Shown here: positions 5,340 through 29,704 of the stretch, in pieces
Position numbering within the stretch: the stretch's first letter is position 1
Layout: every line of letters begins with the position of its first letter
From: Escherichia phage vB_EcoM_SA35RD
Reading direction: 5' to 3' (one strand)
Length of the DNA: 64,000 nucleotides
Sequence record: OL960577.1
The notes under the pieces: generated by a model
Told to the model about the DNA's origin: nothing
What the model saw: only the letters and a program-made list of their open reading frames with translations
The model's database searches: none
Made by a program: the position numbers and the translations under genes

Positions 5340-6338
5340 TTATGATACTAATTCAATCCATGCAGGACGCAGAACATCTTGCACCATTCGGACTAATTCT
5401 TTCTTAACAAGATTCGGATTATCAGATGATGTTAATACAATACCTTCACGAGAAGTTTCTTCCAGAATATCTTGAACAGTCAATCCCATCACTTTGCCAA
5501 AATCTTTTGGCGTTACAGTCCCAATCTTAGAAATCACATTATTAATACGATTTAATGTAACATAACAAGCTAGAACATCAAGCAAGTTTTTGTCAGTTTC
5601 GGTTAATGGAACCTGAGTTTTAATAGGCTTATCAGACTTTTTCTTTTCACTGAATTTAGAGTTCTTGCACTTAATAGCTACACGAGTACCGTTTGGCAGC
5701 CATTTAGGGAAACAGGGCTTCAGAACATAACCTTCTGCCGTATTATCACCAATAACATTAGCATCAAATACACAATTATTTGCTTCGACAAGGTCTTCTG
5801 ACGCAGTAGCATTATAAGCGGCTAAGACGGAATCAAGGTCATTTGGAATCATGATAAGAGAATCAAATGTTCCACGACCAAGCATTGGTGCCATTTTAAA
5901 ACCGAATTCATTACAGAAATCTTGCATTTCATAATCGGTCAAATACGTATTATCACCACTTTCTGTATTGATAAGGATATCGAACACATAAAAATCTTTT
6001 TCACCGTAGTCAACACCTTTCTGGATTCCACCACCGGCGAATTCACCGAATACTTGATATGATACAGCTCGAGCTGTGTACATGAATTCCTGAACGGCTT
6101 TAATAGCTTTATCATACTTCTTGAGTACGATTTCATAACCATAAAAATCTTCTGCTGGAAGAATAGGGCCTGTGCGCTTGGCGCATGTGACGTTGTCACG
6201 TTCAATTATTAACGAGAAGTTGGTCCCATGGATTTTCTCACGTGCTACCCAAACACCGGTAGTCAAACCATTAGTGTAGAGTTTTTCAATAAACTTAGAG
6301 TTGTAGTGGTTTTCAAGACTGCTGTATTTCTTAAACAT
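5340..6338 (-). CDS. rnlB: RNA ligase 2 (Rnl2)
   Basis: 332 aa; N-terminal nucleotidyltransferase motif EKIHGTN with the ligase lysine; size and position as T4 rnlB. Confidence 0.9.
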
Positions 6339-6457
6339 AAATCACCATTATAAATAATAATATCAAAATAATTAGCAGAGACTCTGTCTCCGACCAGATG
6401 TTTAATTTGAATGGATAGAACCTAGATTCATTATACCATCAAAAAATGTAAAGCATA

Positions 6458-6709
6458 TTAGAACTTGATTTCTATCCAATGACCATCACGCTGGTCGTGA
6501 TTAATTTTATACTGAAAGCCATTATCACGTAACCACTGCCCGACTTGCTCAGTGATAGTTAAATCGTTCTTTGACGGGTAGTACGTGAATTGTGTCTGGC
6601 CTTTATCAGCGGCTTTCTCTGCCATCACAGAGAAGTTAGTAATAAAATCACTCAACAAATTAGCTTTAGTGGCCAGTGCCCTTTCTCTTAATTCCTGTGC
6701 AAAACTCAT
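6458..6709 (-). CDS. Hypothetical protein (83 aa), 24.2-like position
   Basis: ORF overlapping the upstream gene by 4 nt; position equivalent to T4 24.2/24.3 region. Confidence 0.55.
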   Translation of the reverse strand: MSFAQELRERALATKANLLSDFITNFSVMAEKAADKGQTQFTYYPSKNDLTITEQVGQWLRDNGFQYKINHDQRDGHWIEIKF

Positions 6710-19286: not shown

Positions 19287-19316
19287 ATAGTATCACACAT
19301 CCATGTGTTTGTAAAC
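19287..19316 (-). promoter_or_regulatory. T4-type early promoter
   Basis: Minus strand GTTTAC, 18 nt, TACTAT; -35 overlaps the alt stop codon. Confidence 0.55.
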
Positions 19317-21403
19317 TATCCTTGGACAAATTTAAACGGAACTGATTCTAAATCCATTAAAGATGCTAACAATTTCAAACCTTTAGGTGCACTAGTTTTT
19401 TCTACAAATGAAGCAAAAGATACCGGCTCATCTGATTCGATTTCACCCGTCATAGCAACCACATCGCCTGTTTCCATGAGAACATCGCCATCGTAAATGA
19501 CAGCTTCGTCCAACTGGTCCGAGGACATGACTTCAGCTTGAATAAATTTAAGGTTGGATTCTAAACCTGCACCAGTATCAGATGACGCATCTGTAATTTT
19601 ATTTATCTGCAAGAGGATGCCTCTAGGCAAAATAATTTCTTGCTCATTAGGGTGATTACTCAACTGTCCTGGATAAATCACGTTAACTTTATGGGCACCA
19701 TCAATAGCCCATCCGACGTTAACACGGATTTGTTCTGGTGCATGTATAGCTGTTCTTACTTGACTAGGAGAAATAGTAACACCTTCGTCATTATTGTCAA
19801 TGTTAAGCTCTTTGCGAACTTCTTCAGGAGCAAGTCCAAGGGCAACGTTCTCTTTAAACCCACCGAAAATAATAGGAGCTAGTGAAGTGGAAACATAGTT
19901 TCTGAAGTAGAATACCTTATTTTTAACCATTGCTTCGTAAATAGGCATTCTGATAGACTGAGCTCTATATAACGTTAGTCCTTCAGGTAAACGGTCTCCA
20001 TTTAAAAACGCCGAATCAAGACCATCAATAGCGCGTTTAACTTCATCTTCATCCGCAACATCGTAAAAATCTGGTTTATAACGACCTAACAACATGTTAT
20101 TGATATCGGTATACGCAGAAGAGGCGTATTCACGAATAGCTCGTTTTTCAGCAACAGAGTATTGTTTAGGGTCCCGATTCATTGTTATATTAAAGGTGCC
20201 TCTAGCCGATTCTCGTGCATAAGTATACATCACATTAGACAAGAACGCTGATTTACGTTGTTTCCAAGTTCTTTCAGATACTTCAGCTAAAACGTCATCA
20301 GGCAGTTGGAAATTATCACGTCTAAAATCTTCAAACCATTCGTCTTTAATAGAGTCTGCAATTTCATTTGCAGCTTCAACAAAAGCAGCTAATGCTTTAA
20401 CAGATGTTGTTTTTTCGGTTTTAATTTTCTTAGCAAACTTTTCTAAAGTCGGCTTAATAACACTACCATAAGAAACTTCATCGGCAAATTTAAAGGATTC
20501 ATCAATACGATTATAAATCTTATTTTCGATATCAGCAACTAAAGTGCCTTTTGCTGTGGACGATGCTTGGGCTAGTACGATTTCATATGCTTCAGGAAGT
20601 AATTCGGCTGTAGCCGGGCCACTAACTTCTTTAGCAGAATTTTCGTATTTCTGGAATAACTCACCTTCTTGGCGGTCAGCTTCTAAAGATTGACTTGCTG
20701 CAATAGCACGACGAGAAATTTTAGTACGAGCAATAACAGGCTTATCTTTACGTTTTTCTTCTACAGCAGCAATAGAACCAGCGATAGCCGTTTCTTTGGT
20801 GACCTTTTCGCCGGTCTTTTTACTCACATAAACTTCGCCAACATCAGAATCTACTTTCGTGTACAACTCTGTGTTAATGTTAGGGATGCCTTTAATATCT
20901 TCAATGTTGGCATTTTTACGAACCATCATCACATAGGTGTGTTTACCTGTGAATTGATACATTGCCGACAATACTTTAAAACGACCACCGGTTTTAGTAG
21001 AAACTAAACGAGCAAGAAGAGTTTGAAGCTGTTGTCCACGTCCTTTCAATTTCTTGGTAGGGAACCGGAACAGAACTGCATCCATACGAAGAGCTTTAAC
21101 CTGTTCATATACTGTATTGAAAATAGTGTTGATTGCATCAATAGGAGCAGGGCCAAGGCCATTTTTCAATTCAGCGAGATTACCCTTTTCAGATAGACTC
21201 ATAATAACAACATGAGCGTATTTGTCGCCAAGTTTAACTTGTTTTACTGCGTCGCCTTCAGAAAGGTAAGAGAATAAGCGAACTACGATGTTTGTATCGA
21301 TATCACCAATTTTCCAGACTTGTGGAACTTTAGCTTTAGGGTTCAAATTGACGACAGGAAGACTGCCTTCAGATTCAAACACTTCATTTAATTGTTCAGA
21401 CAT
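19316..21403 (-). CDS. alt: Alt ADP-ribosyltransferase (packaged; modifies host RNAP alpha)
   Basis: 695 aa (T4 Alt 682 aa); position between ligase gene 30 and gene 54; assignment by size, synteny and overall similarity to my recall of T4 Alt. Confidence 0.8.
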   Translation of the reverse strand: MSEQLNEVFESEGSLPVVNLNPKAKVPQVWKIGDIDTNIVVRLFSYLSEGDAVKQVKLGDKYAHVVIMSLSEKGNLAELKNGLGPAPIDAINTIFNTVYEQVKALRMDAVLFRFPTKKLKGRGQQLQTLLARLVSTKTGGRFKVLSAMYQFTGKHTYVMMVRKNANIEDIKGIPNINTELYTKVDSDVGEVYVSKKTGEKVTKETAIAGSIAAVEEKRKDKPVIARTKISRRAIAASQSLEADRQEGELFQKYENSAKEVSGPATAELLPEAYEIVLAQASSTAKGTLVADIENKIYNRIDESFKFADEVSYGSVIKPTLEKFAKKIKTEKTTSVKALAAFVEAANEIADSIKDEWFEDFRRDNFQLPDDVLAEVSERTWKQRKSAFLSNVMYTYARESARGTFNITMNRDPKQYSVAEKRAIREYASSAYTDINNMLLGRYKPDFYDVADEDEVKRAIDGLDSAFLNGDRLPEGLTLYRAQSIRMPIYEAMVKNKVFYFRNYVSTSLAPIIFGGFKENVALGLAPEEVRKELNIDNNDEGVTISPSQVRTAIHAPEQIRVNVGWAIDGAHKVNVIYPGQLSNHPNEQEIILPRGILLQINKITDASSDTGAGLESNLKFIQAEVMSSDQLDEAVIYDGDVLMETGDVVAMTGEIESDEPVSFASFVEKTSAPKGLKLLASLMDLESVPFKFVQG

Positions 21404-21458: not shown

Positions 21459-21668
21459 TTAATCCACAATCGGAAGCAAAGTACGATAAACTTCAAAATT
21501 AGAGCCTTTTTCGTACTTATCGAAATTGTCCATAAAAATATGATAGGAATCGTTATTAGGAAAATCTAATATAATCTGAGAGCAAGAGGTGGAAACATCT
21601 CCACCATCCTTCTTAGCTACAATAACTGTTTCTAAATAAGCTTTCATTATAAACCTGTCTGGGACCAC
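21459..21668 (-). CDS. Hypothetical small protein (69 aa or shorter)
   Basis: ORF between ligase and the terminator; overlaps ligase stop by 22 nt; start uncertain (internal Met MKAYLE possible). Confidence 0.45.
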   Translation of the reverse strand: MVPDRFIMKAYLETVIVAKKDGGDVSTSCSQIILDFPNNDSYHIFMDNFDKYEKGSNFEVYRTLLPIVD

Positions 21669-23140
21669 GGTCCAAATACGTCTTCAAATGAATCCGCTTC
21701 TGTTTTATCAAAACGGAACCCTTTAATAATTGGAAGGAAAATACCTACAGTGCCTTCACGGCCTTTAGAATGAACCCAACCATTGCATTCACAATCAGCA
21801 ATACGTCCAATCAATTTACCTTCACGAGCTTCGGTCATTAATCGTTCACGGTCTAAATCATGACGCTCGTCTAAAGGAATAAGAACCTTTACACCGTCAA
21901 CTGTTTTATGAGTTGTATCTTTAAAACCTGAACCACAATCAGTTGTAATACGACGACAACGTGATACGAGTTCGACACCACCTAATTTGTTAGGGTCTTT
22001 AGAGTGTTCATAGTATCCTACAACTTCTAAAGCGATATCAATAACTTCTTTAAATTTAATTAGGTTCTTAGAGCGTTTGTTTTCCCAATATGAATCACGG
22101 TTTTTAAGGATAATACCTTCAAGACCTTGGTCAACATATTTTTTATAAACCACTTTAGCTTCGTCAAGATTACGAACTAACTGATTTTCAATTGGCTCAA
22201 TTCGCTTAAAGCCTTCAGCCATATTTTCAAGAGCAGCAAAACGAACATCGTATTTCTGACCTTTAATTTTGCCGTCAGAATAGACTTCATCTAAAGGAAC
22301 ATAGTCCCAGGCTTGAAGAACCATACCTTCCGCTTCTTTAGGAGAAATAGTCCCTTGAAGAGATTTATTTGCTAAACCGTTTGAAGTGCTACGGTCCGCA
22401 ACTTGTACTTCTTCGGATTCTTCATTATCACCAAATAAGAACGACAGGTCATTTCCTGAGCTCACAGCCTTTTTAATATCAAATGAATGATAAACTAATT
22501 CACCGTCGATTAAAACCCCATTAGGATGTCTTTCACGAGCTTCTTTAGTCATTTCCATCAGTTCATCCGCTAATAGAGTAAGACCATGATATTCGTTACC
22601 GGCACGAGAAAAGAATTGAACACCGTCATCGCGAACTTCAGCGAAACAACGAGCACCATCTGCTTTTAATTGGGCAAATGCAGGCCATTTAATATTTTTA
22701 GTAATCAATTTCTCATCATATGCAGATGCTAACATCTGTGGTTGCAATTGAATAAGTCCAGGCCACACCTTATTCGCGATAGACACTGAAGCACCTACTT
22801 CAAGGTCGCGCATCATTACACGACGAAGGACTTCTACATCATCAGGTTTACCGTCAGCGATATAACCCATGAGCTCTTTAATTGCAGCATTACCAGTGAG
22901 TTTACGAGTGGCTAATGTGAACTCAATAAAATCCAACATGTCATCTAATTCAAGAAGACCGTATGCTTGAGACCTTTCACCTGGCCCCGGCCATTTCTTA
23001 ATATAATACTGGATACCACGTGCATATGTTAAACGATACACACGTTCAAGTAATTTGTTGTCCTTATTTTTCTTAAGGATTTCTTGTTTTGTTTTAGTAG
23101 AACCGATCGCAGCTATTTGGTTTAAAATATCTAAAATCAT
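21647..23140 (-). CDS. 30: ATP-dependent DNA ligase gp30
   Basis: 497 aa; adenylation motif AQLKADGAR; N-terminus MILDILNQIAAIGSTKTKQEILKKN like T4 ligase. Confidence 0.95.
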   Translation of the reverse strand: MILDILNQIAAIGSTKTKQEILKKNKDNKLLERVYRLTYARGIQYYIKKWPGPGERSQAYGLLELDDMLDFIEFTLATRKLTGNAAIKELMGYIADGKPDDVEVLRRVMMRDLEVGASVSIANKVWPGLIQLQPQMLASAYDEKLITKNIKWPAFAQLKADGARCFAEVRDDGVQFFSRAGNEYHGLTLLADELMEMTKEARERHPNGVLIDGELVYHSFDIKKAVSSGNDLSFLFGDNEESEEVQVADRSTSNGLANKSLQGTISPKEAEGMVLQAWDYVPLDEVYSDGKIKGQKYDVRFAALENMAEGFKRIEPIENQLVRNLDEAKVVYKKYVDQGLEGIILKNRDSYWENKRSKNLIKFKEVIDIALEVVGYYEHSKDPNKLGGVELVSRCRRITTDCGSGFKDTTHKTVDGVKVLIPLDERHDLDRERLMTEAREGKLIGRIADCECNGWVHSKGREGTVGIFLPIIKGFRFDKTEADSFEDVFGPWSQTGL

Positions 23141-23415: not shown

Positions 23416-24231
23416 TTAACAATTTATAGACCAAGTCCATTTGGACGAATCTAAAGGAAAGTTTTGAATCGTCCACCATGGCTGCATATCGGTTGGTCCT
23501 GGGGTTCGCCAGGTATACGGATTCGACGGAGCGCCAATTTGATTAGGCCATGCGCCTGGACTTGTTGCACCAGATTCTTTAAGCAAATCCGCCAATCGTT
23601 TTAAAAGGTCTTCACGATCTGAATCTGAATTATGCTCGGGTGGAACCAAACGAGATTCAATATCATCCCACGTGTGTACACGTTGTGCAGTACGAGGAAT
23701 GGCATCACGTTCACCACGAGCCAACCAATAAATCGGTACATTAAGAATTTCTGCTGCATGGTCACAGTGATGAGCTAAATCGTCAACGTAACAAATCACG
23801 TTATATTTTGTTTTAGCTAGTTCAAATAATTGTTCTTTTGAAGAATCATGACCACACATCATTACTTCAGAGAAAGCGCCTGGGAACAAAGCATTCAAAT
23901 TAAATTGTCTATTCAATCGAGCATCAATTGAATCACCTAGCGCCGTCACAGCTACAAAATTATAGTCTTCTTTTAGTTTATTGATAACTCGAAGAGCATC
24001 CGAATAAGGCGCTAAGTAACGAATAAAATCAGAGCTATTATATTTTTCTATTAATTGTTTACCAAGGTTATCGTCGGTATTGAACAGTTTACCAGGAGAA
24101 ATAAATTTTTCGTCCTGAATCATTTTTAAAATATGTTCTAATGGAAGATTATATTTTTGGGCAAAATAAGGAAGTCCAGATTGCCAGCTTAAACATACAC
24201 CATCAATATCAGTCAAAATAGTAGGCTTCAT
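23416..24231 (-). CDS. HAD-superfamily phosphatase-like protein (30.2-like position)
   Basis: 271 aa; N-terminal HAD motif I LTDIDGV and motif IV-like VDDL; resembles 5'(3')-deoxyribonucleotidase-type HAD enzymes. Confidence 0.6.
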   Translation of the reverse strand: MKPTILTDIDGVCLSWQSGLPYFAQKYNLPLEHILKMIQDEKFISPGKLFNTDDNLGKQLIEKYNSSDFIRYLAPYSDALRVINKLKEDYNFVAVTALGDSIDARLNRQFNLNALFPGAFSEVMMCGHDSSKEQLFELAKTKYNVICYVDDLAHHCDHAAEILNVPIYWLARGERDAIPRTAQRVHTWDDIESRLVPPEHNSDSDREDLLKRLADLLKESGATSPGAWPNQIGAPSNPYTWRTPGPTDMQPWWTIQNFPLDSSKWTWSINC

Positions 24232-24695
24232 AAAGAGTCTCTTAATAGGTTTAACACATCAATAAATTCGGCTTCGGTTAATATTGTATCATCTTTTGTT
24301 AGGTGGCTGGCCATGCTGTGCTTCAAAATTTTTCCTTTAGAGGCTTGTAAGGCATCGCGAAACCCCTTGTTTTGGATCGCGGCTTCAAAATATGCATTTG
24401 TGTATAATTCTTTCCACGCTTCAGAGTATCTTGAAAATGGAACTCCTAACCAGAAGAGAGTCCCACGGTCCTGAGCTCTTGCGTAAGACCTTCCAGCTTG
24501 CTGTGCAGCCAATCCAGACAACCCAAATATATGTCTTTGTTGTTCAACATTTTTCACCTTACATCCTTGGAGAAATCCTTCAAGACCTCCGAATTGAATA
24601 CCATCCATAACAAAAGGCCATTGAGCAAAGTTACTTAATGCACATGACGGCCATTTGAAATTACTTCTTATTTCTAATTCAGACATCTTTAACAC
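24228..24695 (-). CDS. NADAR/YbiA-like (DUF1768) protein
   Basis: 155 aa; LSNFAQWPFVMDGIQF…EGFLQG…ALQASKGKILKHS parallels E. coli YbiA FSNFAAWPIKVDG…SEHYFQ…LLLATAPAKLVEH, but H of EHYFQ is replaced by G. Confidence 0.55.
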   Translation of the reverse strand: MLKMSELEIRSNFKWPSCALSNFAQWPFVMDGIQFGGLEGFLQGCKVKNVEQQRHIFGLSGLAAQQAGRSYARAQDRGTLFWLGVPFSRYSEAWKELYTNAYFEAAIQNKGFRDALQASKGKILKHSMASHLTKDDTILTEAEFIDVLNLLRDSL

Positions 24696-24897
24696 TTATA
24701 ATTTCAACATCAGCCCAATGTCCATATCCAGGTATACGGTCTTCGATAGATAAATTTCTGTCATTTTTAGGCATTTTAATTGACGTAACGTATGGTTCTA
24801 AACGGTTTTCCGCGTAATATGGAAAAACGTCGGTTACACGATAAGTAACTTCAATCATTTCCGTACCAAACAATTTCTGGATTAATTTATTCAACAT
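24679..24897 (-). CDS. Hypothetical protein (72 aa)
   Basis: ORF with short overlaps to both neighbours in the 30.x cluster. Confidence 0.5.
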   Translation of the reverse strand: MLNKLIQKLFGTEMIEVTYRVTDVFPYYAENRLEPYVTSIKMPKNDRNLSIEDRIPGYGHWADVEIISVKDV

Positions 24898-25084: not shown

Positions 25085-25138
25085 ATTTTTCCACTTACTA
25101 AAGAAATCATTATACTCTAATCCGTCCTTGGATGTAAA

Positions 25139-25753
25139 CTACTTAATGAAATTAATTTCTACCGGATGAACAACAGGTTGAGCAGTGATATATTGAGTAA
25201 TTGCTTTCATGACTAGAGCTTCAGAGCCAGGATTTTTCTCAACGAATTCACGTGCTTGGTTATGAGCTTCAAGTTCACTTAGTAAACCACTTCGTTGACA
25301 TCCACGGTCTTGAGTACCCTGTTCAGATAAAAAGGCGACGATGTATTTTTCATCGTCATAAGGTTTAGGCAGTTGAGCAAATGTTCCTTTACTTCCAAAA
25401 GGAGAGTTATGACGCCACATCACGCCGTGAGGAGTTTCAACCTTCGTATATTCGTGTGGGCCATTTTTCTTAGTTTCTTGATGTGGAACTTCATGGACCT
25501 TAGGGTTAGGACATTCAATAAAATGCTCATCTAAATCAGTCGAGAATATTAAAGTAAAACAATTACTAAATTTACCAACACCTGCCTGATAAATTTTACC
25601 TTCAGACGTTCTAATTTCACAAACCGAGCCAGCATCAGTAACTTCTAAAACTTCAAAAGGCTCGATAAGATCATATGAGAACATGTTTTTAAGGCGTGGA
25701 GTAATATCCCCATTTTTAAAATTCATTTTATAAAAAGTATTAACTTTAAACAT
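25139..25753 (-). CDS. Hypothetical protein (204 aa)
   Basis: Long ORF with SD; no family recognised. Confidence 0.65.
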   Translation of the reverse strand: MFKVNTFYKMNFKNGDITPRLKNMFSYDLIEPFEVLEVTDAGSVCEIRTSEGKIYQAGVGKFSNCFTLIFSTDLDEHFIECPNPKVHEVPHQETKKNGPHEYTKVETPHGVMWRHNSPFGSKGTFAQLPKPYDDEKYIVAFLSEQGTQDRGCQRSGLLSELEAHNQAREFVEKNPGSEALVMKAITQYITAQPVVHPVEINFIK

Positions 25754-28141: not shown

Positions 28142-28712
28142 AAAAGTTTCGGATTTGTTCCCAATTCAGAGAACGAAGATTATTACGAGAGTACTGAATT
28201 ACTTCAATACCGGCTTGTTTTAGAATGTCTGCCCAATTTTCAGGAGATCTGTCATATAATTCTGCGTATACAACCTTTTTAATACCTGACTGCGTAATAG
28301 CTTTAGTGCAATCAGGACATGGAGAAAGCGTCGTATATAACGTAGCACCTTCAATAGAATTACCTTTACGAGCTGCAAACAAAATTGCATTCAGTTCCGC
28401 ATGGATTTCGTTATTGGCAGACCATGCACTATGAGCGGCCCGATGTTCTTTAGCCAAAACAAAATTATCTACCCGTCCAAATGCTGTAGTGCCTTCTTTA
28501 TGTCCAGCAACGATGACTGGGATTGGTTTATTCTTCAACCAACCATTTTCAGATGCATGTTCGCAACAGTTAACGCCACCTGAAGGAGAGCCATTATAAC
28601 CTGTAGAAATAATGCGTCCATCTTTTTCAATGACGGCGCCAACTTTCCATGAACAACATTTTGATTCTTGAGAAATCAGATATGCAATCTGAAGGTATGT
28701 GCTAGCTTTCAT
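28131..28712 (-). CDS. cd: dCMP deaminase
   Basis: 193 aa; zinc-binding motifs HAELNAI and SPCPDC; same size as T4 Cd. Confidence 0.95.
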   Translation of the reverse strand: MKASTYLQIAYLISQESKCCSWKVGAVIEKDGRIISTGYNGSPSGGVNCCEHASENGWLKNKPIPVIVAGHKEGTTAFGRVDNFVLAKEHRAAHSAWSANNEIHAELNAILFAARKGNSIEGATLYTTLSPCPDCTKAITQSGIKKVVYAELYDRSPENWADILKQAGIEVIQYSRNNLRSLNWEQIRNFCGE

Positions 28713-29704
28713 TATTGAACCTTATTAATATAAGTTAACAGCTCTTTAGTTTGTTCCCAACTGATGCACGCATCGGTAACGGAAACGCCATAGGACATAT
28801 TATCAGAAATTTTTTGATTTCCTTCATGTAGGAATGATTCTATCATAATTCCTTTGACCAAATCATTAGCTGCTAAATTTTTACCAATACCAATTTGATT
28901 GCTATAATGCCCATCAGCGTTTGCATGGCTACAATCGACCATTACATAATGATTCAGACCTACTGCCCTTGCTTTGTTAGAAGCTTCTTGAATATCAGAA
29001 GAATGATAGTTCGGGCCGTTGGTCCCGCCACGCAATACGATATGCGTATTCTGATTACCTTCAGCTTCAACAATGCCTACAGTACCATCGACGTCCATAC
29101 CCATATACCGATGAGGCCAGGCGGCACTATACATCGCGTCTGTAGCTACTTTAATAGAACCATTGGTTGCGTTCTTGAAGCCTACGCACATCGGTAGACC
29201 TGAAGCAATTTCACGATGTGTCTGACTTTCAGTCGTACGGGCGCCAATAGCAACCCATGAGAAAATACCAGAAAGATACTTAATCGTGAATGGGTCTAAT
29301 ACTTCAGTTGCTAATGGAAGTCCCATACGTAGAAGTTTACGACACAATGTTCGTGCAACTATAAGACCGTGGTTCATATCAAAACTTCCGTCAAGATACG
29401 GATCATTTACAAGACCTTTCCAACCTACGGTAGTTCGAGGCTTTTCAAAATAAACGCGCATCACTAACAGAACATTAGGAAGACGAGTTTGAAGTTCAGC
29501 CAGACGTTTGCCGTATTCAACAGCAGCAATAGGGTCATGAATTGAACAAGGACCTACAACAATAAGTTTGCGTGGGTCTTCACCGTTCATAATCGAATTA
29601 ACTTGTTCGCGATGAGAAGCCACTTGTGATGCGTAAGCTTCCGACAAAGGAATAATCTCAGCTAGTTCTTTTGGAGAAATAAGTTTTCCGACGACAGGTA
29701 ACAT
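28712..29704 (-). CDS. 3-deoxy-D-arabino-heptulosonate 7-phosphate (DAHP) synthase, class I (AroG/AroF/AroH-like)
   Basis: 330 aa; GPCSIHDP, KPRTTVGWKGL, GARTTESQ, HIVLRGG, ESFLHEGNQ, VTDACISW align with E. coli AroG metal/PEP-binding motifs; stop overlaps cd start (TAATG). Confidence 0.9.
   Translation of the reverse strand: MLPVVGKLISPKELAEIIPLSEAYASQVASHREQVNSIMNGEDPRKLIVVGPCSIHDPIAAVEYGKRLAELQTRLPNVLLVMRVYFEKPRTTVGWKGLVNDPYLDGSFDMNHGLIVARTLCRKLLRMGLPLATEVLDPFTIKYLSGIFSWVAIGARTTESQTHREIASGLPMCVGFKNATNGSIKVATDAMYSAAWPHRYMGMDVDGTVGIVEAEGNQNTHIVLRGGTNGPNYHSSDIQEASNKARAVGLNHYVMVDCSHANADGHYSNQIGIGKNLAANDLVKGIMIESFLHEGNQKISDNMSYGVSVTDACISWEQTKELLTYINKVQ

Follow-up and report, generated by a model that had tools for sequence, protein, structure and literature searches.

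Genomic location and coding sequence of adfN

The gene described here lies on the minus strand of the window, the 64,000-nucleotide stretch of the genome of Escherichia phage vB_EcoM_SA35RD (OL960577.1) that was analysed. The window derives from a T4-like (Tequatrovirus) genome, and the 3 kb surrounding the gene share 97–99% identity with many T4-like phages of Escherichia and Shigella. In the list of open reading frames of the window, the ORF spans 24695 to 24228 and, when begun at a GTG, comprises 155 aa. The ORF is real, and LSNFAQWPFVMDGIQF, EGFLQ and ALQASKGKILKHS are all present in its product; the E. coli YbiA peptides with which an earlier note on this DNA had compared the product are found in PDB 2b3w.

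The same note had taken all 155 codons as the gene. The ORF is present as described, but translation most likely starts at the ATG at 24686, three codons after the GTG, so that the coding sequence (24228..24686, minus strand) would comprise 152 aa plus the stop codon and encode a phage-type NADAR domain. The gene is called adfN in the following. The ATG is the start annotated for T4 30.3 (X53848.1, CDS 175-633, 152 aa) and overlaps the stop codon of the upstream gene 30.4 (ATGTCTGA), which argues for the shorter product. The codons GTG-TTA-AAG (24687..24695, minus strand), which are included in the count of 155 aa, fall within the 3' end of gene 30.4 (24679..24897). They probably do not belong to the translated protein, since the T4 annotation begins at the ATG and full-length close homologues of the product are 152 aa long.

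Further features known from T4 map inside the gene. The 3' end of adfN (24283..24308, minus strand) contains the counterpart of the T4 middle promoter PM30.2, which in T4 is annotated within 30.3 and would serve MotA-dependent transcription of 30.2; the sequence agrees with T4 over the 3' 20 bases, among them the TACAAT -10 element, and deviates at four of the six leading bases (AGCCAC vs AGTGGT). The small overlapping T4 ORF 30.3' (X53848.1, 311-538, 75 aa), located in another frame inside adfN (24323..24550, minus strand), is interrupted by an in-frame stop (codon 35) and is thus not conserved in the window.

Gene order around adfN

The genes on the minus strand are arranged in the order 30.4 - adfN - 30.2 - 30.1 - DNA ligase (gene 30) - alt.1 - alt, as annotated in phage RB32. 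The DNA ligase (21647..23140, minus strand) and alt (19316..21403, minus strand) were assigned by PF01068 and PF03496, respectively, and the product of 30.1, encoded on the same strand, by the Pfam family DUF3045; Pfam also confirms 30.7 and 30.8 in this region. Directly downstream of adfN, gene 30.2 (23416..24231, minus strand) starts with an ATG that overlaps the adfN stop codon (ATGA). T4 30.3 is likewise flanked by 30.4 and 30.2 ahead of the ligase gene and shows the same 4-nt overlap with 30.2. Clustering of adfN with the ligase and alt genes, as described earlier, was found, and the distance to alt, given as about 2.8 kb, was measured as 2,825 bp. The gene is, however, not located downstream of the two: since all of them are on the minus strand, adfN precedes 30.2, 30.1, the ligase gene and alt in the direction of transcription.

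A candidate sigma-70-type (T4 early-like) promoter, TTTACA-18-TATAAT (25109..25138, minus strand), is located in the gap upstream of 30.5-30.4-30.3. With 11 of 12 positions it is the top consensus match of the region (a match to the consensus only), while the total number of sigma-70-type sites in the region is not above that in shuffled sequences (17 vs 13.1 ± 3.8). The candidate promoter is consistent with early expression of adfN, and early expression of T4-like NADARs was also deduced by Iyer et al. 2022 (PMC9503650).

Because alt is encoded in the same early region only 2.8 kb away, it is conceivable that AdfN reverses or tunes the modifications made by the phage's own Alt, ModA and ModB, which would explain the place of its gene. 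We read the proximity of adfN and alt as conserved Straboviridae gene order and not as evidence of a functional link, because the position is conserved across genera and neither a ligase homologue nor an annotated ADP-ribosyltransferase gene was found close by in two other phages. The position between gene 31 and the ligase gene, as present in the window, is also that of the 30.3 homologues of Lazarus-, Chryson-, Slopek- and Krischvirus (between gene 31/cd and ligase), and alt is encoded on the opposite strand in the relatives infecting Acinetobacter and Aeromonas. In neither Brevundimonas phage Gurke nor Vibrio phage PVA8 was a ligase homologue detected at a distance of up to 5 kb from the 30.3 homologue; the annotations of the same stretches leave most genes unnamed and list no ADP-ribosyltransferase. 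Moreover, the NADARs studied so far were shown to act on N-glycosidic ADP-ribose at guanine (some at cytidine) and not on arginine-linked ADP-ribose of proteins (PMC11125620, PMC11543638, PMC12945103), and the phenotype of the adfN deletion is specific for DarTG1 (PMC11825919). A functional link between adfN and Alt was therefore rejected, and the chance that Alt, ModA or ModB define the role of AdfN is considered very slim.

Relationship to T4 gp30.3

The product of adfN matches PF08010 (Phage_30_3) over the full profile (1-138) with E=7e-69 and 230.4 bits against a cut-off of 36, and it belongs to PHROG 652. It has the same length as T4 gp30.3 and is 96.1% identical to it; by these matches the gene is identified as the orthologue of T4 gene 30.3, renamed adfN (anti-DarT factor NADAR). 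Its closest known counterparts are T4 gp30.3 (AdfN(T4)), Pfam PF08010 and the 'phage NADAR' family of Schuller et al. 2023.

For comparison within the family, 71 full-length homologues with 36–87% identity were aligned. The six substitutions that distinguish the product from T4 gp30.3 (R11K, R52H, P89E, V120I, I125M and G128H) are all located at non-conserved positions, none of them being invariant or near-invariant among these homologues. Compared to T4 30.3, 39 synonymous and six non-synonymous codon changes were counted, which points to purifying selection on adfN. With tblastn, the product was found in 1,509 phage records, nearly all of which label it as 'hypothetical protein', and in more than 500 of the phage records it is 95–99% identical. 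The gene has already been characterised via T4 30.3, and its presence is correctly recognised but ordinary for a T4-like phage; in the approximately 1,500 phage records in which it is mostly a 'hypothetical protein', it can now be named adfN.

A more distant homologue of the gp30.3 family (P0037, 39% identical, PF08010) is encoded at positions 6001-6468 of an ENA metagenome contig of 308 kb (L009). The homologue lies on contigs of 308–424 kb (L009 to L012) that are densely packed with small unannotated ORFs, and genes for NUDIX and Thg1-like proteins are located close by. No ADP-ribosyltransferase was found near P0037 in the one context that was checked for a bacterial DarT operon. The context looks like that of a jumbo phage, so the clade of His-type NADARs would extend beyond the Straboviridae. 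A gp30.3 homologue is also carried by Brevundimonas phage Gurke (321 kb).

Membership in the NADAR superfamily

The resemblance to NADAR/YbiA proteins, originally noticed from short motifs, is above chance, although the most obvious check, a PF08719 search with the single sequence, does not reveal it. The adfN product alone gave no match to PF08719 (NADAR) at E<=1, nor to NCBIfam, PADLOC or the PDB sequences (phmmer). The earlier note had regarded the lack of a significant NADAR profile match as sufficient to drop the assignment. Such a test misfires here: a separate Pfam family, PF08010, exists for the phage clade and accounts for the empty PF08719 search, and evidence at the level of the family places the clade in NADAR. 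Individually, 29 of the 71 homologues match PF08719 (best E=1.5e-7), and several of the 71 were named YbiA/DUF1768 by JGI. A profile built from the alignment retrieved E. coli YbiA (2b3w) from the PDB with E=0.005, whereas no other PDB sequence was found below E=6. When the alignment was compared by hhalign with YbiA and the NADAR of Phytophthora, a probability of 95% was obtained (E=3.5e-8, residues 14-122, 98 columns). Furthermore, the structure model of the adfN product (pLDDT 94.4) predicts the NADAR/YbiA fold, in which about five helices form a core bordered by small beta hairpins.

Membership in the superfamily is thus apparent only at the level of the family profile and the fold and not from the single sequence. 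Judged by these comparisons, the gp30.3 family clearly belongs to the NADAR superfamily, as was proposed by de Souza and Aravind 2012 according to the papers citing them for the phage gp30.3 proteins (PMC11125620, PMC11825919, PMC11543638).

Active-site residues and C-terminal helix

The motif of the active-site helix, E36-G-F-L-Q-G-C-K43, is encoded at 24558..24581 (minus strand), as read from the sequence. E36, G37, F38, Q40 and K43 as well as H123 are invariant in 71 of 71 homologues, down to an identity of 36%. E36 and K43 correspond to E48 and K55 of YbiA in both the profile and the hhalign alignments and to E43 and K50 of the Phytophthora NADAR (PnNADAR), the latter two of which contact ADP-ribose (PMC11543638). 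The conserved catalytic Glu and Lys, which contact ADP-ribose from the active-site helix, are hence present as E36 and K43, and exchange of either residue for alanine (E36A, K43A) impairs T4 AdfN (PMC11825919).

His123, encoded at 24318..24320 (minus strand) and located on the last strand, marks the phage NADARs. The hhalign alignment ends with K122 opposite V124 of YbiA, which puts H123 opposite E125 of YbiA. At this position, a His is found in the phage NADARs (gp30.3) (PMC11125620, PMC11543638, PMC12945103), while YbiA-type NADARs have a Glu and DarG1-type NADARs an Asp (PMC11125620, PMC11543638). With H123, the adfN product carries the His of the phage type in place of Glu or Asp. The replacement of the YbiA Glu by this His is the change highlighted in the literature, and it had been caught by the alignment of KHS with VEH in the earlier note. 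The exchanges V120I, I125M and G128H compared to T4 gp30.3 flank this catalytic His.

A different exchange, the Gly in EGFLQ in place of the His in EHYFQ of YbiA, had been put forward as a possible sign of altered activity or specificity, and it could also be taken to mean that the adfN product is a decayed and catalytically dead NADAR remnant. The segment following H123, which reads SMASHLTKDDTILTE, might be seen in the same light, as it does not contain the D-x-x-W-G present in YbiA and the Phytophthora NADAR; from the sequence, the loop after H123 appears about six residues shorter. The lack of a direct match to PF08719 fits decay as well. However, G37 is, together with E36, F38, Q40, K43 and H123, invariant throughout the clade, the active Phytophthora enzyme carries a Gln where YbiA has the His, and T4 gp30.3 with the identical EGFLQ motif was active in three independent studies (PMC11825919, PMC11125620, PMC12945103). 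The Gly is therefore to be regarded as a signature of the family and not as decay. The 39 synonymous to six non-synonymous changes relative to T4 and the full length of the product also speak against a remnant, so that a dead enzyme is barely credible.

Full length is of importance in this clade. The C-terminal helix (residues 138-151 in the structure model, codons 24234..24275 on the minus strand) is intact in the 152-aa product, and the C-terminus is identical to that of T4 gp30.3. In RB69, by contrast, the same gene at the same locus is frameshifted by a T insertion at nt 411; the product is 15 residues short, has no C-terminal helix and provides no protection, and the phage is sensitive to DarTG1 (PMC11825919). 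Since the allele of the window is full length and includes the C-terminal helix, it should be functional. In its length of 152 aa, in E36, K43 and H123 and in the C-terminal helix, it equals T4 gp30.3 (AdfN(T4)).

Proposed function in resistance to DarTG1

The prediction that the family is NADAR dates from 2012, its hydrolysis of guanine-ADP-ribose was reported in 2024, and in 2025 it was recognised as the main anti-DarTG1 factor of T-even phages. The resistance of T2 and T4 to DarTG1 was mapped to gene 30.3, which was then renamed adfN (Johannesman et al., Nat Commun 2025, PMC11825919). After deletion of adfN, T4 and T2 no longer form plaques on cells with DarTG1, whereas expression of adfN rescues RB69 on such cells; T4 AdfN is necessary and sufficient for the resistance of T4 and T2 to DarTG1 (PMC11825919). 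In vitro, T4 AdfN removes ADP-ribose from DNA, and the E36A exchange abolishes or impairs this (PMC11825919). The hydrolysis of guanine-ADP-ribose by the T4 protein has been reported in vitro on DNA (and RNA) in the literature on T4 gp30.3. Thymine-ADP-ribose is not hydrolysed by the T4 NADAR in vitro (Toxins 2024, PMC11125620) and cytidine-ADP-ribose is left in place (Toxins 2026, PMC12945103); in both studies, hydrolysis was specific for guanine-ADP-ribose. Against DarTG2, T4 AdfN is inactive, and the deletion phenotype is DarTG1-specific (PMC11825919). In the methods of one of these studies, the T4 construct is given as 'gp30.3; residues 1-208' (PMC11125620), as compared to the 152 aa of the T4 30.3 coding sequence.

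A role in counter-defence against DarT-type ADP-ribosylation of DNA, as suggested in the earlier note, is supported by these data, given that the T4 protein with 96.1% identity is the published AdfN (PMC11825919). More precisely, the target is the guanine-ADP-ribose formed by DarT1 and neither the thymine-ADP-ribose formed by DarT2 nor cytidine-ADP-ribose. We consider it highly probable that the gene as a whole is to be explained as the orthologue of T4 30.3/adfN, the product of which counters DarTG1 by removing ADP-ribose from guanine. The adfN product would be a minimal N-glycosidase of 152 aa with the NADAR fold. It would act early in infection and remove the ADP-ribose attached by DarT1 from the guanines of the replicating phage DNA; replication of the phage DNA could then proceed and the phage would escape the DarTG1 toxin-antitoxin defence. 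In effect, AdfN would be an orphan copy of the enzymatic activity of the antitoxin carried by the phage. We infer that the allele of the window behaves as T4 AdfN does, and resistance to DarTG1 is predicted for the source phage, because the allele is full length and its catalytic residues are intact.

Alternatively, AdfN might be a scavenger of metabolites or signals, the main substrates of which are soluble ADP-ribose derivatives, immune signals derived from NAD or, as for YbiA, reactive riboflavin intermediates. From gene contexts, Iyer et al. 2022 (PMC9503650) argued that phage NADARs mainly target ADP-ribose derivatives of low molecular weight. The best relative among the PDB sequences, YbiA, is an N-glycosidase of riboflavin intermediates (PMC11543638), and the gene for the HAD-like phosphatase 30.2 is translationally coupled downstream of adfN. 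The T4 orthologue, however, hydrolyses guanine-ADP-ribose on DNA and its deletion has a phenotype specific for DarTG1 (PMC11825919). In addition, the phage clade is closer to the DarG1-type than to the YbiA-type NADARs (PMC11825919) and does not have the Glu of the YbiA type. A scavenger is therefore considered quite improbable, although AdfN may have a second, soluble substrate.

Comparison with other NADARs

DarG1, the NADAR antitoxin of DarTG1 (E. coli C7; Geobacter lovleyi, PDB 8BAT), is encoded adjacent to DarT1, whereas adfN has no adjacent DarT gene; no DarT/ART domain was found in the products of its neighbours 30.4 and 30.2. DarG1 has an N-terminal extension and a catalytic Asp on the last strand, while the adfN product consists of the core domain only and has a His at this position. 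The DarT1 neighbour, the Asp and the N-terminal extension of the antitoxin are thus all missing, and no match was obtained with PADLOC. Moreover, T4 AdfN cannot replace DarG1 in uninfected cells.

E. coli YbiA (PDB 2B3W; PF08719, NADAR/DUF1768) shares approximately 20% identity with the adfN product. It has Glu125 where the adfN product has His123, and a His after the catalytic Glu where the latter has a Gly. The segment after the last strand is longer in YbiA and includes D-x-x-W-G, whereas it is shorter and without this motif in the adfN product, so that the last-strand Glu followed by N-D-x-x-W-G, as found in the YbiA type, is not seen here. YbiA has a housekeeping function as an N-glycosidase of riboflavin intermediates and is encoded in a LexA-controlled operon (PMC11125620, PMC11543638).

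AdfN(Bas32) and AdfN(Bas60) of T5-like phages and Vequintavirinae are likewise orphan NADARs that counter DarTG1 via removal of guanine-ADP-ribose, but they fall into other clades (archaeal-like and bacterial stand-alone-like) and go back to independent acquisitions (PMC11825919). They work outside of a T-even infection, in contrast to the gp30.3 clade (PMC11825919).

Gene 30.2 and the T-even factor

The T4 NADAR fails to rescue E. coli from DarT1 (PMC11125620). T4 AdfN rescues non-T-even phages only weakly and reaches full activity only in a T-even infection, for which Johannesman et al. concluded that an additional T-even factor is needed (PMC11825919). The mechanism of T4 AdfN in vivo is incompletely understood and may involve a phage factor, because there is no rescue in uninfected E. 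coli and only a weak one in non-T-even phages. The identity of the T-even factor needed by AdfN is the question touching this locus that merits the attention of specialists.

The 271-aa product of gene 30.2 was described earlier as a HAD phosphatase-like neighbour of adfN. The gene is present in the cluster, and its HAD-like N-terminal domain is weakly supported by a DxD motif (DIDGV, residues 8-12), a weak match to the 5'(3')-deoxyribonucleotidase 2jao (E=0.12) and the HAD-like label given by other annotators in two related phage records. Pfam gave no match to gp30.2, which belongs to PHROG 420, and a single-sequence AlphaFold model reached a pLDDT of 38.5.

Gene 30.2 was matched in 1437 and 30.3 in 1509 phage records with a near-identical breakdown by host genus, the records being counted for each gene on its own. 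A 30.2 homologue is located downstream of 30.3 and before the ligase gene in Tequatro-, Slopek-, Lazarus- and Chrysonvirus; the two genes adjoin each other directly in Tequatro- and Lazarusvirus, while two small ORFs lie between them in Slopek- and Chrysonvirus. No 30.2 homologue was detected within 5 kb of 30.3 in Krischvirus Skers and Brevundimonas phage Gurke, and in Vibrio phage PVA8 it is located about 11 kb from the 30.3 homologue. The co-occurrence of both genes thus fits a link without being diagnostic of one, and gp30.2 as an obligatory partner of AdfN is not supported. That the translationally coupled gene 30.2 encodes the T-even factor is a long shot; as such a factor, gp30.2 might contribute to the stability or localisation of AdfN or process ADP-ribose after its release. 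As a weaker possibility, the exchanges V120I, I125M and G128H flanking H123 may shift the range of accepted ADP-ribosylated substrates.

The 30.2 gene of the window is mosaic. The first approximately 50 residues of its product are the same as in T4 and residues 1 to about 195 are well conserved, while the C-terminal approximately 75 residues are essentially unrelated to T4, and the product is shorter than that of T4 (271 vs 278 aa). This allele was found at >=95% identity in only 147 phage records, compared to 588 records with the T4-type allele (60–80% identity).

Other genes in the region

A gene encoding a 204-aa protein (25139..25753, minus strand; PHROG 17531, no Pfam match) occupies the place where RB32 and T4 have the 95-aa gene 30.6. 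Directly after the dCMP deaminase gene cd, a 330-aa DAHP synthase (phospho-2-dehydro-3-deoxyheptonate aldolase, aroF-like) is encoded at 28712..29704 (minus strand; PF00793, E=5e-75; PHROG 5045). In the T4-type phage RB32, the cd gene is surrounded by 31.2/cd.x genes, and a DAHP synthase gene is not present. By tblastn, the DAHP synthase was found in 211 phage records, in 138 of them at >=95% identity (e.g. E. coli O157 typing phage 3 and JS09). The gene is thus an auxiliary metabolic gene already known from some T4-like phages.
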